Source of the DNA: Caldisericia bacterium
GTDB lineage: Bacteria > Caldisericota > Caldisericia > JAAYUI01
DNA length: 64,000 nucleotides
Direction: 5' to 3'
Assembly (NCBI GenBank): GCA_963674785.1
Contig: OY771555.1
Coordinates: forward strand, 384,001 to 448,000
Numbering within the stretch: position 1 is the stretch's first letter; every line of letters begins with the position of its first letter. Below, in pieces: positions 47,312 to 64,000 of the stretch. A program made the position numbers and the translations under genes. The notes under the pieces were generated by a model. The model saw only the letters and a list, made by a program, of their open reading frames with translations, made no database searches and was not told the origin of the DNA.

Positions 47312-48685
47312 CTAATTAGTTTTGAAATCAGTATCTCTTTCTGGTGTCGGTGTTCTAATTATGTAGGCATCATTTATGTCATACATAAATGGTTCATGAC
47401 CATATATTCCGATACCTGTAAAGTTATGTTCAATTGAATGGACATCTTCCATCTCTTCATCTGGTTGATTTCTGTCCTCGAGCAATGCCCAACCAACAAT
47501 TGATTCATCCTCAGGGTCTTGTAGTTTGTACCACATTCTCTCAAGTCTCTCTTGGACAAGTGCATTTTCTACATTTTCGGATGAATCATCACATCTAATC
47601 CTTGATCTCACCCAACATCTTTCTTTTTTGGGACCATCTGAATCTATAATTTTCATATAATCAAACTTTTCCAACTCAGCCATCACTTTAGAGTTTTTAT
47701 TGGCTTTCTCATAAAGCTTCACACCATAAATATCAATCTTTTGGTCATTAACAATTGCAGATTGAACATCTTCACATATCAATACATAGTTTAAACCTTC
47801 TGGAAGCATCGGTATGTCTGTAGCCTTTTCTTGTATAACTAACCGAGATTCTGATACATAAACATTGTCTCCAGAAACCTTTTCAACAAATGCAAGTTGC
47901 CCATATCTGATGGTATTTCCATTATCATCAATTATTGTATCCCACAATAAAACATCTCCAGCAACAGGAAGACTTTTTGAGCTTGAATACTTTTCTATTG
48001 AAAAACCATAATCTAAAAGCAAATAAGCATTGCTTTTCCAATTCATCTCACCACTCACAAACGGAAACCTAAGTGCTTGGTTTGGGTACATAATCTTTGT
48101 TGTTGCAATCTTTTCTGAAAGCACACCCGTTTCCTTCATCCTTCCATAAACAAACCATTTTTCATTGCCGGTATATGAGTGTTTAGCGATAAACTCTGTA
48201 TTATCATAATCAACTAAAGTATAGCGGACACTTAAGTAGCTTTGATCATATGAGAAAATAGAGTCAACATAGTGAGGACTTTTCAAATCTGCAATATCCA
48301 AAATTACATTCTTCTCCAAAACATCTTGTTGTCTTGATCTAATCTCAAAAAGTATCTGAGGGATTCCCCACGTACCGATAAGAACAACTCCACACAAAAT
48401 AAGAAAGATAAGCAGATATGACACAAATACATTAGATCGAGTTCTCAAATAATCGCTAAAAATCTGAATTTTTCTACTATAAAACTTATTCAAAAAAATA
48501 TAGAGCACAAAAACAAATATTATTACCGGGACAAATAACCAAAATAATGCCCATTGAGACTTAAGAAATGATGCAAATCCAATAATAATTGTCACAAATA
48601 AGGAGGATACACCAATGATATTTCCAATACTCTCACTCGATAACGTTCCCCCAGTCTCAATTTCATCACCATTTCTTTCAGGCAT
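47312..48685 (-). CDS. 3-TM protein with degenerate CHAP domain and SH3b-like domain
   Basis: Three N-terminal TMs; YTGNEKWFVYGR and PVAGDVLLW...YGQLAFVEKVSGDNVYVSES; VKLYEKANKNSKVMAEL...WYKL...VGWA; start ATG 48685. Confidence 0.65.
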   Translation of the reverse strand: MPERNGDEIETGGTLSSESIGNIIGVSSLFVTIIIGFASFLKSQWALFWLFVPVIIFVFVLYIFLNKFYSRKIQIFSDYLRTRSNVFVSYLLIFLILCGVVLIGTWGIPQILFEIRSRQQDVLEKNVILDIADLKSPHYVDSIFSYDQSYLSVRYTLVDYDNTEFIAKHSYTGNEKWFVYGRMKETGVLSEKIATTKIMYPNQALRFPFVSGEMNWKSNAYLLLDYGFSIEKYSSSKSLPVAGDVLLWDTIIDDNGNTIRYGQLAFVEKVSGDNVYVSESRLVIQEKATDIPMLPEGLNYVLICEDVQSAIVNDQKIDIYGVKLYEKANKNSKVMAELEKFDYMKIIDSDGPKKERCWVRSRIRCDDSSENVENALVQERLERMWYKLQDPEDESIVGWALLEDRNQPDEEMEDVHSIEHNFTGIGIYGHEPFMYDINDAYIIRTPTPERDTDFKTN

Positions 48686-48822
48686 ATGCACCCCCTTATC
48701 TTTTGCTGGGACACAGAGACATCCCAACAGGCACATGCCCATTATACATCAAAAAAAAGGGGGTTACTTATTCTGAAAACTCAAAAAATGTCGAAAATAG
48801 GACATAAATGTCGATATTGTTC

Positions 48823-50271
48823 CTACCCCTTTATAACCCCCAGCGGAACCATCTTCGCGACCTTGTTTGCAATACCCGCATTGTGAAGAACCCCCACCAC
48901 CTCAGATACATCCTTGTAGGCATCGGGTGCCTCTTCGACAAATGTGCTGTTGCTTTTGGCTTTTGCAAAAATTCCTTTGTTTTTGAGGGTTGCAAAGAGG
49001 TCTCCCGCTCTGAATCTTTTTTTCGCTGCAGTCCTTGATAAAGCACGTCCTGCCCCATGACAACAGGATGCAAAGGTTTCCTTTGCACCCTCTGCAGTTC
49101 CGACCATCACATATGAACAGCTGCCCATATCCCCTGGCACAAGCACAGGGTGGCCAGAATTCTTGTAAGTTTCTGGCAGGTCTGGGAATCCCGCTGGGAA
49201 AGCTCTTGTTGCACCTTTTCTATGAACGATCAGTTTTTTACCATCATGGATTTCACGCTTTGCGATGTTGTGGGCAACATCATAAACAATCTCTCCACCA
49301 ATTTTAGAAATAGGCATATCTAAAACTGTGACAAGGCTTTCACGCACCCAGTGTGTTATGAGTTGTCTGTTTGCCCAGGCATAGTTTGCAGAGGCAACCA
49401 TCGCAGAAAAATATTTTTTGCCCTCAGGGCTATCAAATGGTGCGCATGCAAGCTGTCTGTCGGGAAGTTCAATATTGTATTTCCTGACAGCCTTTTGCAT
49501 GACTTCAATGTAGTCACTTGCGACCTGGTGACCAAAACCACGTGAGCCAGTATGGACAAGTACCACAAGCTGACCAGGGAAAAGCCCAAAGGTTTCAGCA
49601 ATACTGCTGTCAAAACATTTATCAACCTTTTGAATCTCTATGAAGTGATTCCCCGCACCAAGTGTTCCAACCTGCCCTGCTCCACGCTGATAGGCTTTAT
49701 CTGAAACGGCTGTGGGATCTGCTCCCTCCATTGCTCCACCCTCTTCGATGTGTTTGAAGTCATCATCAAATCCAAAGCCTTTTCCTATCGCCCACTTTGC
49801 ACCCTTTGTCATCACCTCTGTCAGCTCATGTTTGTTTGCATGATATCTTCCAGATGATCCGACTCCTGCTGGGATATTTTTGAAAAACTCAAAAACCATG
49901 GCTTTCACTTTTTCTTTGACCTCATCAGCTTTCAGGTTTGTCCTGATGAGCCTTACACCGCAATTGATGTCATATCCAACTCCTCCGGGAGAGATCACAC
50001 CATCAGACTCAGTAAACGCTGCAACACCACCAATTGGAAAACCATAACCCCAGTGGACATCAGGCATGGCGATAGAATTGCCAATAATCCCCGGAAGACA
50101 GGCAACATTACAGACCTGCTCTGGAGCGTTATCTGCTAGAAGCTTTTTTTCAAGAGTATCATTACAGTACACAAGCCCATCTGTTCTCATACAGGGTTTG
50201 TTGCTTCTTGAAATTTTCAATCTATTACTATCAATTCTTTCCTTTTTTCCGTTCCATGGCTGTTTTGGCAT
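48823..50271 (-). CDS. rtcB: RtcB-family RNA ligase
   Basis: MPDVHWGYGFPIGG, GYDINCG, GTLGAGNHF, HTGSRG, HRKGATRA, HGAGR, EEAPDAYK. Confidence 0.97.
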   Translation of the reverse strand: MPKQPWNGKKERIDSNRLKISRSNKPCMRTDGLVYCNDTLEKKLLADNAPEQVCNVACLPGIIGNSIAMPDVHWGYGFPIGGVAAFTESDGVISPGGVGYDINCGVRLIRTNLKADEVKEKVKAMVFEFFKNIPAGVGSSGRYHANKHELTEVMTKGAKWAIGKGFGFDDDFKHIEEGGAMEGADPTAVSDKAYQRGAGQVGTLGAGNHFIEIQKVDKCFDSSIAETFGLFPGQLVVLVHTGSRGFGHQVASDYIEVMQKAVRKYNIELPDRQLACAPFDSPEGKKYFSAMVASANYAWANRQLITHWVRESLVTVLDMPISKIGGEIVYDVAHNIAKREIHDGKKLIVHRKGATRAFPAGFPDLPETYKNSGHPVLVPGDMGSCSYVMVGTAEGAKETFASCCHGAGRALSRTAAKKRFRAGDLFATLKNKGIFAKAKSNSTFVEEAPDAYKDVSEVVGVLHNAGIANKVAKMVPLGVIKG

Positions 50272-53204: not shown

Positions 53205-53232
53205 TTGACAATTCAGATTAAGTTGATATTAT
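53205..53232 (+). promoter_or_regulatory. Sigma70-type promoter of the V4R operon
   Basis: TTGACA-16-TATTAT with TG extension. Confidence 0.65.
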
Positions 53233-53313
53233 TTTAATGTGTGAAGAAGCACTTTTCTATTAGCTGAGATGGGGAAAATCCCCACATGGTATGTAATACT
53301 TTGGAGGTAAGTC

Positions 53314-53793
53314 ATGTCCGAAATTGATGAAAGATGGATCAACTCTCTTGTCAACGGATTTTTAAGATCCTTTGCCTATATCGTTGGAGTTGAACAGTTG
53401 AAAATGTTCGTTTCTAAAGCTGGTGAAGCAATTATGGCTAGCGCTGATGAAGATCAATCTATGCCCGTAACTGGGTCTTCGATTCCAGAAATAGTAAAAT
53501 CTGTTGGAGATATTTTTGTTGCGGTAAACCCGACTAACCTGGACTGGAAAACAGATGCAACAGAAAATGGTGTGAAATTATCCATAAACAAATGCCCATT
53601 TTCAGGTCTCTGTTCTGAGATGATTGGAGAGATTATTGCCAGTGGTCGAGTTGAGAAAAAAAGAGTTCCATGTTTAATGTCAGAATTTGCAACAGGTAGC
53701 TGCAGAGTTAAAGGTATTAAGGCTAGAGCTACAATCGATTCCTTCTCACCAGGACACCTTTGCGTTTCAGAAATCGCAAAATCGGAGGTTTAA
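53314..53793 (+). CDS. V4R-fold / methanogen output domain 1 (MetOD1)-like protein
   Basis: GGAGG RBS; KCPFSGLC...PCLM...GHLC Cys pattern. Confidence 0.7.
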   Translation: MSEIDERWINSLVNGFLRSFAYIVGVEQLKMFVSKAGEAIMASADEDQSMPVTGSSIPEIVKSVGDIFVAVNPTNLDWKTDATENGVKLSINKCPFSGLCSEMIGEIIASGRVEKKRVPCLMSEFATGSCRVKGIKARATIDSFSPGHLCVSEIAKSEV

Positions 53794-53794
53794 T

Positions 53795-54343
53795 ATGAGT
53801 CTCAGAGAAAACATGATGAAACAAATCGATGTTGATGCAGAAAAATCTGAACTGAGAGTTGCTGGACAGCTGTTTGCGTATCACTGTGACAAATTCAACA
53901 CAAGGATTTTGAAGGGACTTGAAGACACACTTGGATTTGAAAAAGCAAGAGATCTTCTTGAAAATTCTGCAGAATCCACAATGTATGATACACTCACAGG
54001 GATGTTTGATCTCTTTGAAGGAAGCACCCCAGAAGAAAAGCTCAATTCAATCTTCGAGGCTTACAAGGTTCTTGGTCACGGAAACATCTCCGTAAAAGAG
54101 ATTTCAGCATCTGGTGGAACAGCCACAGCAAAACCCTCATACATGGTCGAAGGGTGGCTCGAAAATGAAGAACGCTGGGGTTGGGGAAAAAGAGAAAATC
54201 CAATATGTCATGATGAAGCAGGTGCAATCGCAGCAGCATTCGAGATAGCATTTGGGCTATCAAAAGGTTCAGCAAAAGTTACCGAGACACAGTGTTATGT
54301 CACAGGTGCAGATTCCTGTGAGTTTAAGATTGAGGTGGCATAA
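53795..54343 (+). CDS. Stand-alone V4R-domain protein
   Basis: Start ATG 53795 (GGAGG); LGHG, PICH..AG, ETQCYVTGADSCEF motifs. Confidence 0.85.
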   Translation: MSLRENMMKQIDVDAEKSELRVAGQLFAYHCDKFNTRILKGLEDTLGFEKARDLLENSAESTMYDTLTGMFDLFEGSTPEEKLNSIFEAYKVLGHGNISVKEISASGGTATAKPSYMVEGWLENEERWGWGKRENPICHDEAGAIAAAFEIAFGLSKGSAKVTETQCYVTGADSCEFKIEVA

Positions 54344-54960
54344 TGATAGATCAAGAAGCAGTAAGAAACGCATTCCTGGGCATGGGTCTTGTTGGAAGTG
54401 AAGCAGACGGGATACTCAGAAAGTTCAATGTCATCCTGAAAGCCGACAACGCAAACTACCTCATTGGTCGTGAATTTGATTTAATAGAAAACATGGGTGG
54501 GGAACCATCCAGAAAACTTGCCGAAAAAGTTCTCATTGATGCTGCACAGTGGTGTGCCGTTGCAACATTTGGTGGAATCATGGGTTCAGATGAATGGAAA
54601 CAGATGATTGAACCAAACATCTCAAACAGCCAGGACAAGTTCGCAGGTATAGTAGCAATAACAAATTGTCTCGGCTGGGGAAAGGTAACAGACTGGAAAC
54701 TCGACGAAGAGGCAAAAACTCTTGATCTGACAGTTTCTCACAGTTACTATGTTGAAGCATTTAAAAGCAGATACGGCAAAAATGCTCAATTCCCAATATG
54801 TTACATGTGGACGGGAGTAGCTGGTGGTTACCTGGATTTGCTTTTTGACAAGAGACCAGGTACATTTACCGGTGTGGAAAATGAATGTGCAGCTATTTCA
54901 GGAGATGTTTGCAAATTCAGCGCAAAAGAATCCAAGAAGAAATTCGGATTTAATATGTAA
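54343..54960 (+). CDS. Stand-alone V4R-domain protein
   Basis: LGWG, PICYMWTG..GG, ENECAAISGDVCKF; TAATG coupling with upstream gene. Confidence 0.85.
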   Translation: MIDQEAVRNAFLGMGLVGSEADGILRKFNVILKADNANYLIGREFDLIENMGGEPSRKLAEKVLIDAAQWCAVATFGGIMGSDEWKQMIEPNISNSQDKFAGIVAITNCLGWGKVTDWKLDEEAKTLDLTVSHSYYVEAFKSRYGKNAQFPICYMWTGVAGGYLDLLFDKRPGTFTGVENECAAISGDVCKFSAKESKKKFGFNM

Positions 54961-54971
54961 GGAGTGTAAAA

Positions 54972-55349
54972 GTGCCATCAATAACAGAACAATTGTCTTC
55001 CATTCTGAGTAGCTTAAAATCAAATGTGATGGGTGTTGAAAAAGCGATCGTAGGTTCATCAGATGGTCTTATTCTTGCTTCAACTACCCATGAAGAATCT
55101 GATGAGAGAATGTCCGCTATGTGCGCATCTCTCCTTTCAATTGGCAGAAGAACAGCTGAGACCCTTACAAAACCAACTCTTGATGATGTTACAATCAGAA
55201 CAGGAGAAGGTTATATAACAATCTTTGCTGTCGCAAGGGAAGCCGTTATCGTTGTTTCAACATCTGGAGAACAGAAAAACCTCGGAATGCTCTACCTCGA
55301 AGGAAGCAAAGCCGCAAAAGCCATGCAGAAGGTTTTTGAGCAGTCATAA
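54972..55349 (+). CDS. Roadblock/LC7 (MglB-like) protein
   Basis: GVEKAIVGSSDGLILAS, MSAMCASLLSIG, NLGMLYLE; 125 aa. Confidence 0.9.
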   Translation: MPSITEQLSSILSSLKSNVMGVEKAIVGSSDGLILASTTHEESDERMSAMCASLLSIGRRTAETLTKPTLDDVTIRTGEGYITIFAVAREAVIVVSTSGEQKNLGMLYLEGSKAAKAMQKVFEQS

Positions 55350-55358
55350 TCAAAAAAA

Positions 55359-56525
55359 ATGTTTAAAGCTGATTTCCCTGCTGCCAAAGATGTTCACAAT
55401 TTTGACTCTGCGGCAACAGGACTTTTACCGAACTCTGTGATAGATGGTGTGACAGAGTATTGGCAGAATTCCTGCTCGAACGCAGGGAGATCGGCATATT
55501 ACAGGTCGCTTGAGATAACTGACTTCATCGATAATGCAAGGTCGGAAATCGCCAGTTTTTTTGGTGCCTATTCTTCCGAGTTGCTCTTTACACCTGGAGC
55601 GACTCATTCAATCAACTGGGTCGCCCTTGGCTGTCTCAATTCCAAAAGCGATTCGATTCTTGTAACAAAAGCTGATCATCACGCCAATATCTTACCCTGG
55701 CTAAATCTTCAAAAAAAGGGTGTAGAAATAAGATTGGTTAACTGTGATAAGTTTGGCAGAATTGATATTGACGATTTCAGAGCCAAAGTCAAAGGCTGTA
55801 AAATTGCAGCATTTTCCGGAGCATCAAATGTTACCGGAGCAATCCAGGATATTAAAACCCTCACAAAAATCGCAAGGGATAATGGTACACTCTCCCTCAT
55901 TGATGCAGCACAGCTTGCACCCCACAAAAAAATCAACTTCAAAGAAACCGGTTGTGATTTTATGGCGATTGCTGGTCATAAGCTTCTCTCTCCAAAAGGG
56001 ATTGGCATCCTTCTTTCAAGAGTCGAAAGTCAAAATCAAATCGACCCATGTATTCTCGGTGGAGGAGGAATAGAAGATATCAATGAATCAGACTTTTCAA
56101 TGAAGGGGTATCCATTAGGTTTTGAATCGGGCACACCATCAGTAGAAGGCATAATTGGACTTTTTCATGCTACAAAATGGTACAGGGATAAAAATCAAGA
56201 CATAGTTTACCAACATGAAGAGCTGCTGAGAAACAAGATTCAAAAACATTTTACTGATATGGGTATAGAAGTAATTAACCCGAAAAATTCAACCCCACTT
56301 ATAACCTTCAACATCGAAGGTTTACGACCACACATAATCGCAAGCAAACTTGACAGATTCGGCAGAGTTTTGGTGCGATCTGGACACATGTGTGCCATCC
56401 CATTTACAAGAACTGTCCACAAAAAGAGGAATGGATTCATAAGAGTATCAATTGGTCCATGGAATAATAATGATGATGTTGAAACCCTTGTTACAACAAT
56501 GAGGAGAATTCTTGATGAGAATTAG
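55359..56525 (+). CDS. SufS/CsdA-like cysteine desulfurase (PLP, class V)
   Basis: FDSAAT, DHHAN, DAAQ, AGHK (PLP Lys), VRSGHMCA (catalytic Cys). Confidence 0.9.
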   Translation: MFKADFPAAKDVHNFDSAATGLLPNSVIDGVTEYWQNSCSNAGRSAYYRSLEITDFIDNARSEIASFFGAYSSELLFTPGATHSINWVALGCLNSKSDSILVTKADHHANILPWLNLQKKGVEIRLVNCDKFGRIDIDDFRAKVKGCKIAAFSGASNVTGAIQDIKTLTKIARDNGTLSLIDAAQLAPHKKINFKETGCDFMAIAGHKLLSPKGIGILLSRVESQNQIDPCILGGGGIEDINESDFSMKGYPLGFESGTPSVEGIIGLFHATKWYRDKNQDIVYQHEELLRNKIQKHFTDMGIEVINPKNSTPLITFNIEGLRPHIIASKLDRFGRVLVRSGHMCAIPFTRTVHKKRNGFIRVSIGPWNNNDDVETLVTTMRRILDEN

Positions 56526-56784
56526 GGTTTTAGAGCTTTGTTCATATGGAAGCACCGGAGATTTTGAGGCAATTGATTTTGATGGGGAGAGAATTGACCT
56601 CGACCACATTCCAGAAGGTTGGGAACCCAAGGGTGGCAACCAAGAAGCCAAGAAGTTCATTAAGAAGAGTTGGACAATTGAAGTCTACGCAGAGGGAAGA
56701 ATTATTCTGCTTGACATACCAACAAAAAATGGCAAAGAAATATCAGAGTCGCTATTGTTAGGCTGGCCTCGACTCAAAAAATAA
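56512..56784 (+). CDS. Small hypothetical protein coupled to the desulfurase
   Basis: GAGGAG RBS within upstream gene; single Cys (ELCS); IEVYAEGRIIL. Confidence 0.65.
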   Translation: MMRIRVLELCSYGSTGDFEAIDFDGERIDLDHIPEGWEPKGGNQEAKKFIKKSWTIEVYAEGRIILLDIPTKNGKEISESLLLGWPRLKK

Positions 56785-56789
56785 TACTA

Positions 56790-57335
56790 CTATTCAGGTG
56801 ATACTGGCTGGTTAAGAATCACCTCAAAGAAAACGGTATAAAGAGCATCTTTTGCGCTTGCCTTATCCCTGCCAACACATTCAACAATTTTGCAATCGAC
56901 AATCGGCTCAAAATACTGCTTCATTCCCTCCATTGAGATAACACTTGGAAGGTCGGATTTGTTTGCAACAATTATTATTGGCACATTTGTTCTGCTTGTA
57001 TAAAACTTAACAAAATTCTTTGCACCCATAACAGAACTGAAATCAGATCTATCAACCATAATCATTATTGCAATCGAACCATTTATCTGGTCTTCCCAGA
57101 TAAAATCAAACCTTTCCTGACCGGGAGTTCCAAAAAGATAGATTGAGAGATCTTCAGATATAATTATCTTCCCAAAATCAATCCCAACTGTCGTGTATTT
57201 TTTTTCACCCTCTGCACCAGTTGATAAAATTTCTTCTGTTGCGACAAACTCAGTATCGGATAAGGTTTGAATAAAAGTAGTTTTTCCAGAAGAAAAGGGG
57301 CCGGTTATCAATATTTTATATCTTTCTTCCATCAT
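56790..57335 (-). CDS. MglA-type small GTPase (Ras superfamily)
   Basis: G1 GPFSSGKT, G2 TTVGIDFG, G3 GTPGQERF, G4 NKSD. Confidence 0.92.
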   Translation of the reverse strand: MMEERYKILITGPFSSGKTTFIQTLSDTEFVATEEILSTGAEGEKKYTTVGIDFGKIIISEDLSIYLFGTPGQERFDFIWEDQINGSIAIMIMVDRSDFSSVMGAKNFVKFYTSRTNVPIIIVANKSDLPSVISMEGMKQYFEPIVDCKIVECVGRDKASAKDALYTVFFEVILNQPVSPE

Positions 57336-57934
57336 CCACCAAGTCTTTCGAGGAATTTTCTTATCTTTCTTATAAGGGAAAAGCCAATGCTTGCGGTTTT
57401 TTCTTTTCTTACCCTTTTGATAATATTGACATTTTCAAGTCCATAAAGAATCTTTGAAATCGATTCTATGTCCATTTCCAGAGCCAACCTTATCTGAAGG
57501 ACAGATTTTTTTTCAGAGAGTTGAGCCAGTACCTTCCATTCGTCAGAATCCAACTCAAGATCACCAAGGTTGAGAACTTTAGACAATTCAAACAGCATAT
57601 CATCGCTGTATATATCTAGGCAAACCTCTGGTCTCTCCATTTGCTTTGTGAGTTTATGAACGAATTCGTCATGTGAATCATTCACCGAATAACGATACTC
57701 CCTGGGATAGACTGTTGACCCAGAAAAATAATAATTTCCACTTTCAACAGAAACAATGAGATCAATAAAAACACCTTCATGGTCAGAAGCTCCGCCAATA
57801 ATTGCGCCATCTCGAAAATAGATGTCAACGGTCTTCTCGCCATCAAGGGTCAATGTCCCGGAAATCCTGATCGATGCAAGAAGACTTATCACATCAATCA
57901 AGATACTTCTTTCAAGTTCTCCTCTGATATCCAT
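57332..57934 (-). CDS. DUF4388 (PATAN-like) protein with C-terminal winged-helix-like region
   Basis: IRGEL....IDVISLL.....SGTLTL......IYFRDGAI; EWKVLAQL...LYGLE; ATGA overlap with GTPase. Confidence 0.8.
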   Translation of the reverse strand: MDIRGELERSILIDVISLLASIRISGTLTLDGEKTVDIYFRDGAIIGGASDHEGVFIDLIVSVESGNYYFSGSTVYPREYRYSVNDSHDEFVHKLTKQMERPEVCLDIYSDDMLFELSKVLNLGDLELDSDEWKVLAQLSEKKSVLQIRLALEMDIESISKILYGLENVNIIKRVRKEKTASIGFSLIRKIRKFLERLGG

Positions 57935-58044
57935 ACCACCATTGTAGCAGCTTTTTTTTGATTTGCAAGCAATAATATTTACAAAAACATTTTGTTCTTT
58001 CTTGAATCATGTATAATTGTTGATATTTATTTTACCAATAAAAA

Positions 58045-58692
58045 CTACTTAAATCCGAGTTTTTTTGGTTGTCGTTCTGCAGCTGCGTTAAAAGCCAAAT
58101 TGGACAGAAACTTTTTGATTGAACCTGCCAAATTCACCGTGTTTGTTATGCCTGCTTCAATTCTTACTCTTTTTACAACCCCAATTTGCTCAAGAGCAAA
58201 AATGATTTTCCTTGAAGTTAAATGGCTAAGACCAAGTGCTATTGAAATCTTGCTAATATCAGTCTTTTCGGAAAGCATCGCTACAACCCTCCACTCGTTA
58301 ACATCAAGAGTAACTCCATCGAGAATAAAATCCCTAGAAAGCTCAAATTCGAATTGTGTATCGTAAAGATCTGGATTTATATAGTCATCACTGATGTTTT
58401 TTGCGATAAGATGAATTATTGAATTTGTTGAGATATTGGGTTTGATTCCATCAATATTAGGAACAGGATTTTGGTCGGCAAAAAAATAACTTCCGCTACC
58501 AAAATTTGCGATCTGACTGTAAACGGACTCTCCGTCCTCGTTTGCACAAAGGGTATCTATCGAGCCATCTTTAAAAACTATTTCAATTGCACGGTTTCCG
58601 CTTAGAGAAAGTATGCCTGAAGCACCAGAGGAATTCAAAAAACTAATGACCTCCAACGGTGTAGTTTTTCCAATTCTTCCTTGTATACCCAT
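58045..58692 (-). CDS. DUF4388 (PATAN-like) protein, paralog
   Basis: IQGRI....LEVISFL.....SGILSL......IVFKDGSI; EWRVVAML...LEQIGVV. Confidence 0.8.
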   Translation of the reverse strand: MGIQGRIGKTTPLEVISFLNSSGASGILSLSGNRAIEIVFKDGSIDTLCANEDGESVYSQIANFGSGSYFFADQNPVPNIDGIKPNISTNSIIHLIAKNISDDYINPDLYDTQFEFELSRDFILDGVTLDVNEWRVVAMLSEKTDISKISIALGLSHLTSRKIIFALEQIGVVKRVRIEAGITNTVNLAGSIKKFLSNLAFNAAAERQPKKLGFK

Positions 58693-59165
58693 GGAGTTAA
58701 TTTACCAGATTTTGGGATTAAGTCAAATAGTTTATTAACAATTATTAATAAATCGATAGAATATGCTATCAAATCATGGAATATCCAAGAAATCTTTTTG
58801 TAGTAGATATTCGAAAAAAGTTGCATCAAAACCCAGAATCTTGATTCTATGAAGCATACAAGCAGATTGTAATAAATGTCGTTTTTCAGATATAAGTATC
58901 ATCTATTTTAGAATATATTTATCTTAATTTTATTTTACTAGAATAATTATACGGAGAGATAGAAAATAAATATAGATGAATAAAGGATTTCTGGTGTCCC
59001 ATTCGTTTTGAGGACTCCTAAAACAATTGTCATCATAAAAAATACAGTGGAAAGAACACATCGAGTCAACCTTTTTATGTTGGTTAACGTATTAAAATGT
59101 AGTGCCAAAATCATCAAAGAGGTATAAGTATGCATCACTCAGATGAAAGAAAAGGGAATATATTT

Positions 59166-61163
59166 ATGAACAAAATTAATACAAAAGTCAGCTTTATTGT
59201 GGTCTTATCAATCATAATTCTAGCTTTCTCTCCATCACTTGACGTTAACGGAGACATTGAAACCATTAAGTTTCCTATTCTACCATCTGGTAACAAGACC
59301 ATCTCAGCAAGTGTTTCAAATAAACCATGTGTATTTAGTTTCGGCACCCTTTCACAGTCACTTAACAACAAAAGAACAGGGAATAACTCAAATGAATTCT
59401 TCATTACCAATAAGAATCTTGATATCACTAACACAGTAAATGCAGCTCAGAGGATTGATACTTTTGACACAAATGGAAGCTATTCACAGATCTTCCTAAA
59501 TCCCGAGTATATCAAATACACCGATGAAACAAAAAACCTTGGAATTTCAATTCTTTACGCAAATGGAAAGATAAAAGCTTTAGTTGGCAAAGATGTAAAC
59601 TGCCATCCACAACTTGACCTGATAACATTCACTGATGATGAATTCTTCTTTGTCTACGACACAAATTCTCTTAAAGAAATTGGGAGAATCGAGATTAGTG
59701 AAACATTAGAATCTGATTTTGAGGTTGAGTTTCTTTCCAAGATATTTGCGTTCATCAACAACGATACCGGCAGACATCTTTATGATTTCATAAATCATGA
59801 ATACATCCTCGAAGATTATGAATCAATTTTCAAAACTACATTTGGGGATTCCGATGATTTCATTGTATACCACGATCATCTTGTTGATTTGAACACTCAA
59901 AATATTTATCCACTGGAAATCCCTGAAAAATATCTTAATAACAAAGCAGGGACAACAAAAATACATGATGATTTTATAGATACATACATTGTGAGCTCTG
60001 ATCTTGAAAGCTATATGATTAGATTTGATATGTCAGGTGGCTTTGTAGATGAGTTTCCACTTGAAGCAATAGGTATCGATCAGGCATTGATCATTGATAC
60101 CTCAAAGGAATACATTATTTCATATGTTCCCCATAAAACCATTCCTATGAGAGCAATTGGTCTTAAAGTAACAGATTTACAAGATTATGCGGAATATATA
60201 ATCCCATATTCCATTTACACTTACTGTGAACCAATTGACATTGATGATGAATACATTTACCTCTCTGGAAAAAATGGATTCTTCAAAATCAATCATGAAA
60301 CAAAGGAGGTTTCAGTTAAACACAAACAACTATACACCTCAAAACCAGCAGTCTTCCAGAAAGATGAAAACCTGTTTGTGGTATACCCAGAAAGTGTGAA
60401 GGATGACTCAAAGCTTATCGCCTATCCAATCGATAATGACTTCCAAATTGACCCATCAAAATCTTTCACAGTTGAGAATGATTTTGAGTCTGGTTTTGCA
60501 GCAACCGATGAGCTAGCAGAAAATATCTCTGAAAAATTCGGTAAGTCTTTTTGTCACAAAAACTTTGAAACAGAAACATACCACGGTGGGCACATCATCT
60601 CAGACTCAGGGGAGGTCATTCAAAACGGACTTGGAGCATGGGAATTTCTAAAGGAATGTGATGATTATCTAATCGGTCTATCAAAGGAGTGGAAATTCTT
60701 TGGCACCCTCGGCAACACCCTCTGCAGATTTGAACCATGCCAGACATTCTCTTTAAAAAAGCTAGATTCGCAAACAGATGATGAGGTAAGATTTGAAATC
60801 GTAGCAACAGGAAACGGTGGGATTTTTGATGGAAAGGCCTATTTGGTTCCATGGTCAAATAATAATAGCAGCTCAACACCAAGATTTGCAAAACTTGGAG
60901 AAGCAGTTCCAATCAAGTTGCTTCCTGGCATGAAAGAGATTATTACACTCAATACGCCCGAGGAGAGGAGCTTGATAAATTCGACAAATGAGACTAATGA
61001 AAGTAGATGCTTCGCCCTAATCATTGAATCAAATGGATTGCTCGATATTAAAAACTCTGAGCTATCTGAAATAGATGATAGAGTAAGACCACTTTTTGAT
61101 GGGACACCTATTTCATTTGAGGAACAGAAAGCTGTCTCTTTGACTATGTGGGAGGTTGAGTAG
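59166..61163 (+). CDS. Secreted protein with conserved C-terminal domain (family member 1)
   Basis: Signal peptide from ATG 59166; C-terminal EPC.TFS...FALIIESNG.LD...RPLFDGTP. Confidence 0.8.
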   Translation: MNKINTKVSFIVVLSIIILAFSPSLDVNGDIETIKFPILPSGNKTISASVSNKPCVFSFGTLSQSLNNKRTGNNSNEFFITNKNLDITNTVNAAQRIDTFDTNGSYSQIFLNPEYIKYTDETKNLGISILYANGKIKALVGKDVNCHPQLDLITFTDDEFFFVYDTNSLKEIGRIEISETLESDFEVEFLSKIFAFINNDTGRHLYDFINHEYILEDYESIFKTTFGDSDDFIVYHDHLVDLNTQNIYPLEIPEKYLNNKAGTTKIHDDFIDTYIVSSDLESYMIRFDMSGGFVDEFPLEAIGIDQALIIDTSKEYIISYVPHKTIPMRAIGLKVTDLQDYAEYIIPYSIYTYCEPIDIDDEYIYLSGKNGFFKINHETKEVSVKHKQLYTSKPAVFQKDENLFVVYPESVKDDSKLIAYPIDNDFQIDPSKSFTVENDFESGFAATDELAENISEKFGKSFCHKNFETETYHGGHIISDSGEVIQNGLGAWEFLKECDDYLIGLSKEWKFFGTLGNTLCRFEPCQTFSLKKLDSQTDDEVRFEIVATGNGGIFDGKAYLVPWSNNNSSSTPRFAKLGEAVPIKLLPGMKEIITLNTPEERSLINSTNETNESRCFALIIESNGLLDIKNSELSEIDDRVRPLFDGTPISFEEQKAVSLTMWEVE

Positions 61164-63623
61164 GTGAAGCGATTTGCTTTTTTAAGTTTTATTTTGATCA
61201 TTATTTTATCAGGCAACTCAATTGGAGTATCTGCAAAAAGGCAAGTCAAAGCACCTTTTCTTTACTCTGGCTTTTCATATTCATCTGGAAAATACTTTTT
61301 TTCAGATTCCACTGTTAAAATCGGCAGATGTATCGAAGATGATCTTGTCAATTCCAAAGATAGTCCGCCACTCTCCTACATCTATGATGGAAACTTGAAG
61401 GTTTCAAATTTCGGAAGTTTTATCCTCACCTCAAACCCTGATGATAGATGGAGTGATACATTTCTTACTGGAGATTTCGGTTCAAACACAATCTTTTCTA
61501 GTGATATGAAATATGTGGCTTACATGAAAGACAACGGTTTTGCCAGAGACTATGATTATCTGATGGTCATTGATACAGTAAAAATGGAAATCATCTACAG
61601 CTACAAATCAGAAACCATTTATAGCTACTTGTCTGCTCCGGAATTTATTGATGACATATTGATCTTTGGTGGCGATGAAGAATACCACTTTATCGATCTG
61701 AATACTGGTAGTAAATTTCTGACACTATCTGGAAATGAATATGGTTATCAGGAGTTTGATGACCATTACGGTTACCTCTATCTCAGGGAATCTAGGAAGA
61801 TTATTGATAAGGAAAGCAAAAAGATTCTTGGTGAATTCAACGTTCCTGGAGAACACAGCACACATAAATTCAGAGATGACCACATTGAGGTTCTACACTT
61901 TTATTTTCATCCACACGGAAACTATGGTGCAACTGAGTTGAAAGTGACAAGATGCGATAAATTCTTCAATATCACAGATGAATTCTCATTTACCCCAAGA
62001 GGCAATATAAAAAATAAAACATTATTTGGATCATTCGAAAATCTTGCATTGTGTCTTGATTTTGTCAGCCACACTCTTGAGGTCTATGACATGATTTCGG
62101 GAGATTTGAGATTCACACAACAGTTTCAAAAAAACCAAATTGAGAATGTAGAATTCAGAGGTTCTAAAGCTCTCATCAAGTGGGAAGGTGGACTTGAAGT
62201 TCTAAATCTTGAAACACTTTCAGTGGAAAATCAGTTCACATTCCCAAGAAAGACAGAATTATTGAAACATAAAAACTCAGTTTTTCAGATTAGGGAGTTG
62301 ATTGATGAAGACCTAAAAATGTCAAATGAACTCTTTCAAATAGGGTCTGACAACAAACCAATTTACCACACAAGAACAATCCTTCCCCATGGAGGTGTGT
62401 CCGTGTTCATGAACGATGAAACAGAGGTTGTGACAATTGAGCCAAAAACCAGAATTATCTCAAACAATGGAAAACCTGAAATCTACGGGTACATAGCACG
62501 ATTTCATAAGCTTGGAAGCAGAAACCATTACAAGGAATATCTCATGGGTTATAGCTATACCAAGGATTTTTTCTACAAAGATGGGAATGTTTACACAATT
62601 TCCGAAAGAGGTATTTTTGAATACAACCTAGAAACAGGAAATGACTCAATTATTGATAACTCAGGAGTTGTTAGGGGAGCTGAAAAAGCTGACTGCTCTT
62701 ATAATTACAATAATGAGAACCTGCTTGTTTCTTTCAAATCTTATTCTCATACTTGGACAAGATGTTATGATTTATCTGAAAAATCTAAAATCTTCGAGGA
62801 CGAGAAGTATTCAGAAAATATTCATCTTTTTTGTGGAGCTTTTGTAATTGATAACAAAGTGGTTCCAATAGACACATTAAAAGAATACGAATTCGAAGGA
62901 ACTCCTTGTTTTGTTGATGGAGAAATTTTCATCTATGCAAGTGGAAACACAACATATTTCCTGGATTTGGAAACAGGTGAAAAAACAGATAATGGTGGTG
63001 TTTTTGCTGTGACTCAAGATTTTAGCAAACTTGGAGGTCTTTATCTTTCTGGGCAGACCATCATAGACTCAAAAGGAATCCCAATTCAAAAGCTGAACTT
63101 GTCACAAACTGCAATTTCTGAAAACCAGCTGTTTTATGATAATGAAAGTTATCTTTCATTCTTTAGCACACTTGAGCCTTGCCCGACATTTTCTATTAAA
63201 AGGATTGAAAATTCCGACGATGATAAGATTTCTTTTGAAATCGAGTACACAAGAAATGATGGAATTACCACACCACTTGAAGGGCAAGCCTATCTTATTC
63301 CATGGAAGTATGACCTGATTTTAGCAAGAAACAGCAAAAAAGTTCAGCTGGAACCAATGCTTCCAGGGATGAAACAGAATATATCTTTTGAACCAGCTGA
63401 TTCGAATTCAGCGATCTTTGCCCCATCCCTTTCAAGCGAAACAAACACAGAAGACGAGGGAAATCATTTTGCACTGATTATTGAATCAAATGGAATGCTC
63501 GATGTAGCAAACTCTGAGTTATCTGAAATCGATGACAGGGTAAGACCACTTTTTGATGGGACACCTGTTTCATTTGAGGAGCAGAAGGCAGTTGTTTTGA
63601 CTGTGTGGGAAAATGAGCCCTAA
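61164..63623 (+). CDS. Secreted beta-propeller-like protein with same C-terminal domain (family member 2)
   Basis: GTG start, GGAGG RBS, signal peptide; DLNTG / NLETG / DLETG repeats; C-terminus similar to member 1. Confidence 0.8.
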   Translation: MKRFAFLSFILIIILSGNSIGVSAKRQVKAPFLYSGFSYSSGKYFFSDSTVKIGRCIEDDLVNSKDSPPLSYIYDGNLKVSNFGSFILTSNPDDRWSDTFLTGDFGSNTIFSSDMKYVAYMKDNGFARDYDYLMVIDTVKMEIIYSYKSETIYSYLSAPEFIDDILIFGGDEEYHFIDLNTGSKFLTLSGNEYGYQEFDDHYGYLYLRESRKIIDKESKKILGEFNVPGEHSTHKFRDDHIEVLHFYFHPHGNYGATELKVTRCDKFFNITDEFSFTPRGNIKNKTLFGSFENLALCLDFVSHTLEVYDMISGDLRFTQQFQKNQIENVEFRGSKALIKWEGGLEVLNLETLSVENQFTFPRKTELLKHKNSVFQIRELIDEDLKMSNELFQIGSDNKPIYHTRTILPHGGVSVFMNDETEVVTIEPKTRIISNNGKPEIYGYIARFHKLGSRNHYKEYLMGYSYTKDFFYKDGNVYTISERGIFEYNLETGNDSIIDNSGVVRGAEKADCSYNYNNENLLVSFKSYSHTWTRCYDLSEKSKIFEDEKYSENIHLFCGAFVIDNKVVPIDTLKEYEFEGTPCFVDGEIFIYASGNTTYFLDLETGEKTDNGGVFAVTQDFSKLGGLYLSGQTIIDSKGIPIQKLNLSQTAISENQLFYDNESYLSFFSTLEPCPTFSIKRIENSDDDKISFEIEYTRNDGITTPLEGQAYLIPWKYDLILARNSKKVQLEPMLPGMKQNISFEPADSNSAIFAPSLSSETNTEDEGNHFALIIESNGMLDVANSELSEIDDRVRPLFDGTPVSFEEQKAVVLTVWENEP

Positions 63624-63651: not shown

Positions 63652-64000
63652 ATGAAAAAGATAGTAAGTTTCTGTTTGGCAATTTTTCTGGTTTTTGGTT
63701 TGACAAGCATCTACGCAACTCCAGAACTACCAACCTGGCATAACCCAATGGAGGATGCAAGCTTCATGGGGTATGTTGATGAGGATGTTGCACTTCCAGT
63801 TTTAGCAAATGGTACACTTGAGCTTGGAGGAAGGGTAGAATTCAACTACTTTGATGCTGATAGGTATATAGATGGTACATTTAATGGATTATCATACCTA
63901 AAACCAAATGGTGATTTTACAAAACCATACCTTTCAAATAATTATGATATGTACTTCTTTCCATATCCTGAAATCACTTACTTATACACAGATATTTCGA
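63652..64000 (+). CDS. Secreted protein, truncated by window edge
   Basis: GGGGAG RBS; MKKIVSFCLAIFLVFGLTSIYA signal peptide; open to end of window. Confidence 0.75.
   Translation, partial: MKKIVSFCLAIFLVFGLTSIYATPELPTWHNPMEDASFMGYVDEDVALPVLANGTLELGGRVEFNYFDADRYIDGTFNGLSYLKPNGDFTKPYLSNNYDMYFFPYPEITYLYTDIS

Follow-up and report, generated by a model that had tools for sequence, protein, structure and literature searches.

A conserved bacterial operon combines three V4R-fold genes with a cysteine desulfurase and a small cysteine protein of putative TBP-like fold and travels with Roadblock/MglA-type GTPase switches

Three tandem genes for V4R-fold proteins, followed by a Roadblock/LC7 gene and facing a small GTPase gene, lie in a 64,000-nucleotide window of a Caldisericia bacterium genome. 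The window is the whole stretch that we analyzed, positions 384001-448000 of a single-contig 2.23 Mb genome of 39% GC content that is 92% complete by marker genes. A tRNA-Ile/tRNA-Ala spacer pair marks the genome as bacterial. Do these genes make up a GTPase signalling system, and which of their neighbors belong to it? A preliminary description had read the locus as three V4R genes, a Roadblock gene, a GTPase gene and two DUF4388 (PATAN) genes. We found nine open reading frames (ORFs): six tightly packed on the + strand at 53314-56784, in the order V4R1-V4R2-V4R3-Roadblock-SufS-like-orf90, and three converging on them from the - strand (Table 1). Seven of the nine had been recognized before, while a gene for a SufS-like cysteine desulfurase and the short gene orf90, both inside the interval, had been overlooked. 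As these two proved to be the tightest partners of the V4R genes, the earlier list of parts was incomplete. We tentatively favor the reading that the six-gene operon is one conserved functional unit, possibly a cysteine- or persulfide-fed V4R sensor or adaptor module for Roadblock-controlled small-NTPase (GTPase) switches.

That the six genes belong together was seen from their conservation. Among 40 relatives of the window genome searched for V4R3, orthologs were present in 3/3 other genomes of the genus and 3/4 of its sister genus; a third genus had none (0/3), and one genome of another family gave only weak partial matches. All six relatives with orthologs keep the order V4R1-V4R2-V4R3-Roadblock-SufS-orf90, one of them being cut by a contig end inside SufS. 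A wider set comprised 45 loci, 23 obtained with a V4R3 alignment (one genome per species) and 22 obtained from metagenome contigs with a V4R2 alignment; the 23 species genomes come from a pattern-based scan and are a lower bound. All 45 loci were annotated by iterated profile searches, and nine loci of other lineages were checked with Pfam. Wherever the contig allows, the order V4R1-V4R2-V4R3-(Roadblock)-desulfurase-orf90 is kept, across about ten bacterial lineages. V4R1 was found in 41/45 loci, the remaining 4 having at most 121 bp of upstream sequence. The SufS-like gene was found in 38/45 (38/38 of those assessable); in the other 7 loci the contig stops no more than 38 bp from the final V4R gene. 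Of the 38 loci with SufS, 28 have orf90 (28/28 assessable), and the other 10 end within 58 bp of SufS. At none of the 45 loci was any core gene missing despite room on the contig.

The loci carry the labels Caldisericota, WOR-3, Anaerolineae, Ardenticatenia and Ornatilinea (Chloroflexota classes), Candidatus Zymogenus, Zixibacteria, Hyd24-12, Solibacteraceae, Myxococcota, Deltaproteobacteria, Cytophagia and KSB1, all of them depositors' labels of metagenome-assembled genomes; close homologs are labelled Caldisericia and Caldisericales. The module is rare and its distribution patchy, and all carriers seen are uncultured genomes.

Genes of MglA/MglB/PATAN switches recur around this core. Long flanks, of 4 kb or more upstream and 2.5 kb or more downstream, were available for 18 loci, 8/18 of them Caldisericia-like. 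Roadblock genes were found nearby in 17/18 of these, MglA-family GTPase genes in 8/18 and PATAN/DUF4388 genes in 7/18, at varying positions. In the ten of these loci that are not Caldisericia-like, the counts were 9/10 for Roadblock and 6/10 for GTPase, and Pfam confirmed the switch genes in nine loci from other lineages. The preliminary description had made linkage of V4R genes to Roadblock and GTPase genes in other genomes one test of its proposal; since switch genes recur near the core in other genomes, the proposed link stands for the system as a whole. That such genes should be neighbors within 15 kb by chance is unlikely, a few per cent by our own estimate, because they are so few in the window genome (5 Roadblock, 4 V4R and 8 DUF4388 matches in 2.23 Mb). 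The loci thus define a strictly collinear module of five to six genes, the Roadblock gene being a usual member, which travels with MglA/MglB/PATAN switches in about ten lineages.

The switch genes themselves are arranged differently from locus to locus. In Solibacteraceae (L031) the order is Roadblock, GTPase, DUF4388, V4R1-3, Roadblock, SufS, orf90. In Ornatilinea (L028) it is an ORF of 174 amino acids (aa), GTPase, a 129-aa product, a DUF4388-Roadblock fusion, V4R1-3, SufS, orf90, the 174-aa product being Roadblock-like by jackhmmer only and having no Pfam match. Anaerolineae (L023) has a REC-Roadblock gene (REC denoting a receiver domain), Roadblock, GTPase, a 128-aa product, a DUF4388-Roadblock fusion, V4R1-3, SufS, orf90 and a fourth V4R gene; Zixibacteria (L026) has two Roadblock genes, V4R1-3, SufS, orf90, DUF4388 and GTPase; and WOR-3 (L022) has Roadblock, a REC-DUF4388-Roadblock fusion, V4R1-3, SufS, orf90 and REC-DUF4388. 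Several Roadblock genes follow orf90 in Cytophagia (L037) and KSB1 (L038). The forms that recur in shuffled positions are PATAN domains fused to Roadblock or receiver domains (REC-DUF4388-Roadblock, DUF4388-Roadblock), an MglB-like Roadblock gene with a TVPGQ-type MglA gene, and a PATAN gene with a GTPGQ-type GTPase gene. As described before, no histidine kinase, receiver, sigma54 or STAS domain was found in the genes scanned at 47.3-63.6 kb of the window. Receiver fusions do occur in the cluster at L022 and L023, so that "kinase-free", the preliminary label, does not describe the system in general.

Other genes are interspersed at some of these loci. In Hyd24-12 (L030:1068-2387) and in an uncultured bacterium (L032:5306-6604), the PATAN gene and V4R1 are separated by a gene whose product, about 435 aa long, has a DnaA-type ATPase domain (PF00308, about 78 bits). 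In L037 (10917-12008) and L038 (2595-3737), a gene between the Roadblock genes downstream of orf90 encodes a conserved product of about 370 aa that matches nothing in Pfam.

The three V4R genes follow one another with gaps of no more than 1 bp, as had been noted: a 1-bp gap separates V4R1 from V4R2, and V4R2 overlaps V4R3 by 1 bp. V4R2 passes the Pfam V4R profile PF02830 (44 bits against a cut-off of 31), and its family profile matches the solved V4R protein MJ1460 (expectation value, E, 1.3e-4). V4R3 scores 20.3 bits, under the same cut-off; most V4R3 orthologs do carry PF02830, and the V4R3 and V4R2 profiles align over their full length (hhalign 97.4%, E 1e-11). V4R1 had no match in Pfam or NCBIfam and nothing meaningful in a sequence search of the PDB, and its profile gave an hhalign probability below 1% with V4R2 or V4R3. 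An AlphaFold2 model of V4R1 (21 orthologs in the alignment) reached a predicted local distance difference test score (pLDDT) of 90.2 and a predicted template modelling score (pTM) of 0.85. In Foldseek it matched V4R/Bet3 structures at E 1e-4 to 2e-3 and template modelling scores (TM) of 0.57-0.65 overall. MopR and PoxR came top with their phenol-sensor domains (E about 1e-4, TM 0.57-0.62); TRAPP-type matches were Thorarchaeota TRAPPC3 (TM 0.65), a Drosophila TRAPP core chain (TM 0.62) and mouse Bet3 (TM 0.62), the TRAPPC3 and Bet3 alignments together spanning TM 0.60-0.65, and the list also includes H-NOX. By its modelled structure V4R1 is a member of the V4R family in fold, not in sequence. 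The earlier claim of three V4R-fold genes is thus correct at the level of fold, given this model and the homology of V4R2 and V4R3, and does not extend to the sequence of V4R1.

Conserved cysteines are found in all three proteins. V4R2 and V4R3 share an invariant pattern C-x25-E-x2-C-x7-C (C138/E164/C167/C175 and C153/E179/C182/C190, respectively), and V4R1 has four invariant cysteines (C94/C100/C120/C150). V4R2 has an additional invariant C31 inside the near-invariant motif HCDKFNTR, its invariant H30/C31/D32/K33 lying outside the Zn-like site. Mean column identity of V4R3 is 61% across lineages. We take the Cys/Glu sites of V4R2 and V4R3 to map onto PoxR residues. In Thorarchaeota TRAPPC3 four Cys hold Zn, and PoxR has a similar site (PMC10933270, 2024; this paper, PMC4316618 and the 2026 preprint cited below were available to us in part, and statements taken from them refer to those parts). 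Since the TRAPPC3 and PoxR sites bind Zn, the simplest reading of the conserved Cys/Glu sites of the three V4R proteins would be that they are structural Zn sites. A complex prediction for V4R1, V4R2 and V4R3 with the Roadblock protein, with chains supplied as alignments, scored 0.12 against a mark of 0.32; it was run without controls and says nothing either way on binding. A fourth V4R2-like paralog adjoins the core in some lineages (L023:10359-10916, L032:10264-10929, L044:4403-4960, L058:6801-7448), and in L033 the V4R2-V4R3 pair seems to be duplicated in tandem where the contig begins.

The first of the two overlooked genes encodes a protein that matches the class-V aminotransferase profile PF00266 at 306.6 bits and NCBIfam TIGR01979 (SufS) at 305 bits, under the 475-bit cut-off. 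Over its whole length it can be aligned with cysteine desulfurases of solved structure (best 5b7s, E 4.8e-69), and alignment to 5b7s places the lysine that binds pyridoxal 5'-phosphate (PLP) in the motif GHK and the catalytic cysteine in RSGHMCA. No match to SufBD (PF01458) was found in the 92%-complete genome, although 14/14 control genomes match; likewise no match to IscA/SufA (PF01521) was found, and 10/14 control genomes match. Judged by its sequence, the window desulfurase is a member of the broad SufS/type II family and not the SufS of a SUF system, because its score falls short of the SufS cut-off and the genome has no SUFBD_core match. Nor is it the housekeeping enzyme, because an IscS-like gene directly followed by IscU is present elsewhere (genome C1:799673-801273), which makes the window gene an additional copy. 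The idea that the operon substitutes for a missing Fe-S system was rejected for the same reason. This single IscU next to the IscS-like gene is the sole Fe-S scaffold found in the genome, and the profile searches suggest that its Fe-S machinery is minimal. Two more stand-alone desulfurase-like genes are located at genome 1818811-1820022 and 1263081-1264250.

The second overlooked gene, orf90, had no match in Pfam or NCBIfam, none to SufE, SufU or TusA, and no usable match in ESM Atlas. Its alignment has invariant L8, C9, D16 and G61. The model of orf90 (pLDDT 95.2) gave nothing at E 1e-3 or better with Foldseek against the PDB. In a wide structural search with VIA-align, TATA-binding proteins (TBPs) came top with Z scores of 9.1, 8.8 and 8.1 over about 85 aligned residues, somewhat over the typical background of that search. 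When 1.84 billion representative proteins were searched with the orf90 profile, relatives appeared in 138 representative clusters, nearly all of about 100 aa, and one distant relative (P0105) matches the Pfam TBP profile PF00352 at 37.2 bits. In four relatives (P0108, P0141, P0149, P0158) an orf90-like domain forms the C-terminal part of a ThiF-family (E1-like) protein (E 2.6e-6 to 2.1e-4); these domains keep the "LCG" cysteine and the "GR" motif and are without Pfam annotation. ThiF/MoeB-type enzymes take part in sulfur transfer from cysteine desulfurases, and some bear a rhodanese domain at the C-terminal position. The fusions therefore lend indirect support to orf90 as a persulfide acceptor, and we regard it as a candidate persulfide-accepting domain. 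The C-terminal orf90-like domain may, by the same token, be a new sulfur-relay domain of E1-like enzymes.

What switch could such a module act on? The Roadblock/LC7 assignment was confirmed (PF03259, 52.6 bits, cut-off 23). Several Roadblock proteins of related clusters (L031:8660-9016, L032:3718-4074, L037 and L038) also match Pfam MAPKK1_Int (MP1/LAMTOR3) at 22.7-28 bits against a cut-off of 25; the window protein has no such match. The window GTPase has the motifs G1 GPFSSGKT, G3 FGTPGQE and G4 NKSD, the last being canonical. With a G3 that lacks Asp and contains PGQ, and with canonical G1 and G4, it resembles the MglA family. Canonical Group 1 MglA proteins have TVPGQ as their G3 motif (PMC4316618), where the window protein has GTPGQ. 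Group 1 is further marked by an intrinsic arginine beside the G2 threonine. Among solved structures its best matches are Arl8 (E 6e-10) and Rabs, with MglA at E 1.5e-5. On its motifs, then, it is an MglA-family protein in the broad sense and not a canonical MglA, and the earlier label "MglA-type G3 (GTPGQ)" was imprecise, though right as to family.

An alignment of 12 GTPases separated two types, with 19-29% identity between them. Type A consists of the window gene, its orthologs in L016 and L017, its paralog at genome 1761888 and the L026 gene; its G3 is FGTPGQ(E/V)RF, and a PATAN gene always precedes it, the encoded protein carrying a winged-helix match in the window orthologs and the paralog. 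Type B consists of the copy at genome 1795392-1795973 and those of L023, L028, L031, L032, L051 and L058. Its G3 is YT(V/I)PGQ, and it has an Arg-Thr pair in the sequence "ERTLFFDF", where the window GTPase has "YTTVG" and lacks the pair. In most of these loci the gene before the type B GTPase gene encodes a Roadblock or Roadblock-like protein of 161-181 aa (135 aa in L032). The type B gene of the window genome belongs to a canonical MglB-like/MglA (TVPGQ) pair at genome C1:1794848-1795974, in an unrelated context near sigma factor, redoxin and nitroreductase genes. The type A paralog belongs to a second PATAN-winged-helix/GTPGQ-GTPase pair at genome C1:1761259-1762430, near MutS2, TPR protein and TldD/PmbA genes.

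The two PATAN proteins of the window are similar to each other (E 1.5e-28). They score 24.4 and 19.6 bits with the DUF4388/PATAN profile PF14332, whose cut-off is 25, and cover only the first 47 or so of its 122 positions. An ortholog in genome G002 scores 37.6 bits and has a MarR match of 24.5 bits, and the paralog in the window genome scores 55.9 bits and has a winged-helix match, these additional matches being C-terminal.

According to the reading we favor, the SufS-like enzyme, with its catalytic residues present, would take sulfur from L-cysteine as an enzyme persulfide. The persulfide would move to the invariant Cys9 of TBP-fold orf90, as suggested by the overlap of the two genes and by the fusion of this domain to ThiF-type enzymes, and the sulfur, or a ligand made with it, would reach a complex of the three V4R/Bet3-fold paralogs. 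The Roadblock protein would read the state of the V4R complex and modulate an MglA-family GTPase. In the window, the candidate for this role is the convergent GTPGQ-type enzyme, with the PATAN-winged-helix partners carrying the output; in other lineages it would be the canonical MglB/MglA pair. The logic of an enzyme making the ligand of a V4R sensor would parallel that of V4R-asparaginase conflict systems, where an adjacent asparaginase is proposed to make a ligand for V4R domains (bioRxiv 10.64898/2026.10.19.760177). Besides the collinearity of the core and the recurrence of switch genes around it, this reading has in its favor that canonical MglA homologs are encoded elsewhere in 4/5 genomes whose core has no adjacent GTPase gene.

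Several observations weigh against this reading. L036 is the one long-flank locus without any Roadblock, GTPase or PATAN gene, and all three are likewise missing near the core in L024, where 6.9 kb upstream and 2.0 kb downstream are covered. In one genome, G045, the query employed found no MglA homolog. The E-values of the ThiF fusions are modest, and a dedicated desulfurase would be unusual for a low-copy sensor. V4R2 and V4R3 are 38-60% identical across lineages, a level at least as much in keeping with an enzyme or structural machine as with a ligand sensor. Finally, the GTPase/PATAN pair adjoins the operon in only 3/6 assessable genomes of the window family. A type A ortholog is present in 5/5 tested genomes of that family, at variable positions: in G002 it and the operon are 55 kb apart, and in G004 and G006 the two are on separate contigs.

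This last point could also mean that the convergent GTPase and PATAN genes are neighbors of the operon by rearrangement only, and that the operon uses another switch, such as the MglB/MglA pair at genome 1794848-1795974, or none. The two genes are convergent with the operon and hence not co-transcribed with it; the GTPase linked to the core in most other lineages is type B, the canonical TVPGQ subfamily, whose ortholog here sits 1.36 Mb away; and the paralogous PATAN-GTPase pair occurs in an unrelated context. In Zixibacteria (L026), however, a type A GTPase gene with its upstream PATAN gene lies just after orf90 in the same direction. This independent adjacency argues that the link between type A GTPase and operon is still meaningful, and we consider rearrangement alone a distinctly unlikely explanation. 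The preliminary view of the window GTPase as the operon's partner thus gains from L026 and loses from the variable adjacency in the family and the preference of other lineages for type B. That view was part of a wider model in which the V4R proteins form a hetero-oligomeric ligand sensor or a TRAPP-like scaffold acting as guanine nucleotide exchange factor (GEF). In this model the Roadblock protein would relay the action of the V4R proteins to the adjacent GTPase, DUF4388 proteins would be the effectors, and the desulfurase would stand outside signalling. The set of folds it builds on is real (three Bet3/V4R-fold paralogs, a Roadblock protein and a small GTPase), the V4R, Roadblock and GTPase genes co-occur across lineages, and the GTPGQ GTPase with its PATAN gene is again adjacent in L026. 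As stated, the model ignores the two most strictly linked genes, SufS-like and orf90, and relies on a GTPase that is not stably linked within the window family; in addition, neither a longin-type subunit nor evidence of GEF function was found. We therefore regard it as unlikely.

The main rival to a persulfide-fed sensor or adaptor views the core as a biosynthetic or sulfur-trafficking machine: desulfurase and orf90 would supply the V4R complex, and Roadblock and GTPase proteins would only regulate or localize it. The sulfur could go to a metal-sulfur centre on V4R cysteines, for instance on the four in V4R1 or on V4R2 C31, or it could thiolate a bound hydrophobic substrate. A dedicated extra desulfurase in the cluster, the very high conservation of V4R2 and V4R3 and the fusion of the orf90 domain to ThiF-type enzymes all speak for a machine, and the invariant V4R2 residues H30-C31-D32-K33 outside the Zn-like site fit it at least as well. 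To our knowledge all labelled lineages are anaerobic, which we also count in its favor. V4R has furthermore been called "ligand-binding or enzymatic" (bioRxiv 10.64898/2026.10.19.760177). On the other hand, the clusters contain no recurring substrate-processing enzymes (no radical SAM, ThiF, ThiS or transporter genes); in all-against-all clustering of the 23 genome loci, the only families common to at least three unrelated loci were the core and switch genes. That Roadblock, PATAN, REC and GTPase genes persist around the core is typical of signalling. On balance a machine seems to us rather unlikely.

The association of MglA, MglB and PATAN genes is already in print (Wuichet and Sogaard-Andersen 2014, PMC4316618, citing Makarova 2006). 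The MglA/MglB polarity switch of Myxococcus and Thermus shares with our locus a Ras-like GTPase without the G3 Asp, Roadblock regulators and nearby PATAN genes (PMC4316618), and related loci hold true TVPGQ MglA genes preceded by MglB-like Roadblock genes of about 170 aa; the window GTPase differs in its GTPGQ and in lacking the Arg-Thr pair. Actinobacterial conservons (CvnABCD) likewise have a Roadblock protein, an MglA-family GTPase whose best Pfam match is ATP_bind_1 and a small winged-helix-like partner; they differ in having a CvnA-type histidine kinase and, in Group 2 proteins, a G4 that deviates from the canonical form seen here as NKSD (PMC4316618). Membership of the operon in this class was rejected because no kinase domain was found in the scanned genes. 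In V4R-asparaginase systems the enzyme is an asparaginase rather than a PLP-dependent desulfurase, V4R is fused to effectors (TIR, HEPN, ParA), an immunity role is proposed, and Roadblock or MglA is absent from the systems as described in the available part of the preprint (bioRxiv 10.64898/2026.10.19.760177). The same source reports that ParA can displace MglA in MglA-MglB systems.

Cysteine desulfurases feed sulfur relays such as SufS-SufE/SufU, CsdA-CsdE and IscS-TusA-TusBCD. The operon resembles these in having a type II desulfurase followed by a small protein with one essential-looking cysteine, and it resembles TusBCD in encoding three paralogous small subunits beside the desulfurase. 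It differs in that orf90 has a TBP-like fold and no SufE, SufU or TusA match, in that the genome lacks a SufBD match, and in that the three paralogs have the V4R and not the DsrEFH fold. With the TRAPP core (Bet3/TRAPPC3, Trs31 and Trs33 with longin subunits, a GEF for Rab1/Ypt1) it shares three Bet3/V4R-fold paralogs together with a Roadblock/longin-class protein and a small GTPase. This likeness is one of fold only: the adaptor here is Roadblock rather than longin, and the desulfurase and the TBP-fold protein are integral here. We know of neither of these in TRAPP. The four conserved Cys of V4R1 may correspond to the four-Cys Zn site of Thorarchaeota TRAPPC3 (PMC10933270). Operons that join GTPase genes to Roadblock, longin or TRAPPC3 genes are generally missing from the Asgard MK-D1 genome (PMC10933270), so that the bacterial linkage of V4R, Roadblock and GTPase genes is the more useful handle.

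It could be speculated that the locus encodes a bacterial assembly of TRAPP/Ragulator folds, in which three Bet3-fold paralogs and Roadblock proteins would form a platform that determines which nucleotide an MglA-type GTPase carries. Cysteine would gate this platform by way of a persulfide relay from a dedicated desulfurase to the TBP-fold protein. We consider this highly doubtful. If true, it would amount to a small-GTPase pathway in bacteria that senses an amino acid (cysteine/sulfur), and it would be a living model of the origin of small-GTPase regulation by Bet3-fold and Roadblock/longin proteins. Independently of this, the module offers a candidate new persulfide-acceptor domain found also on ThiF-type enzymes, a prokaryotic case of genetic linkage among Bet3-fold, Roadblock and small-GTPase genes, and a possible tie between sulfur/cysteine status and a GTPase switch. 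Few inputs to MglA/MglB/PATAN switches outside Myxococcus are known to us.

A V4R-desulfurase-TBP-fold module attached to a Roadblock/MglA switch appears to be undescribed, and the operon unstudied. A literature search found no paper joining V4R with cysteine desulfurase, and none by the names DUF4388 and Roadblock; papers that mention V4R with Roadblock or MglA do not describe the cluster in their available parts. The main text of PMC4316618 has 0 occurrences of V4R, desulfurase or aminotransferase, its neighborhood table S2, which might include such loci, falling outside this check. In Podar 2008 (PMC2253512) the words roadblock, MglB, operon, desulfurase and GTPase do not occur.

The positions of the nine genes and of possible control elements are collected in Table 1. 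The SufS-like gene starts 9 bp after the Roadblock gene, and orf90 overlaps the end of the desulfurase gene. The promoter-like site upstream of V4R1 is a candidate only, since such sites total 19 in the region against 19.5 in shuffles. The palindrome downstream of it may serve the PATAN-winged-helix proteins as operator, or else form a hairpin in the 5' untranslated region.

Table 1. Genes and candidate control elements of the locus (positions in the window)
Feature	Position	Strand	Length	Description
Promoter-like site	53205..53232	+		Candidate; TTGACA / 16-nt spacer / TG-TATTAT, 11/12 matches, about 80 bp upstream of V4R1
Palindrome	53270..53284	+	15 nt	TGGGGAAAATCCCCA, perfect; between promoter-like site and V4R1 ribosome-binding site; from sequence
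Ribosome-binding site	53303-53307			GGAGG, precedes V4R1
V4R1	53314..53793	+	159 aa	V4R/Bet3 fold (structure model), no sequence-family match
V4R2	53795..54343	+	182 aa	Pfam V4R
V4R3	54343..54960	+	205 aa	Homologous to V4R2 over full length
Roadblock/LC7 protein	54972..55349	+	125 aa	GTG start; PF03259
SufS-like cysteine desulfurase	55359..56525	+	388 aa	Type II; PF00266
orf90	56515..56784	+	89 aa	Length from its ATG; single putative TBP-like domain (structure model)
Small GTPase	56790..57335	-	181 aa	MglA-family "type A"
PATAN(DUF4388)-winged-helix protein	57332..57934	-	200 aa	4-bp overlap with GTPase start
Second PATAN(DUF4388)-winged-helix paralog	58045..58692	-	215 aa	Apparently own transcription unit

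Farther out, the window encodes a full-length RtcB RNA ligase at 48823-50271 on the - strand (PF01139, 576 bits), and upstream of it, at 47312-48742, a membrane protein with a weak CHAP-domain match. On the other side of the locus, 59130-61163 and 61164-63623 are adjacent genes for large paralogs of 677 and 819 aa with signal-peptide-like N-termini and no convincing Pfam match. Their C-terminal 45 or so aa are nearly identical (ALIIESNG.LD..NSELSEIDDRVRPLFDGTP.SFEEQKAV), and another secreted-looking ORF begins at 63652.

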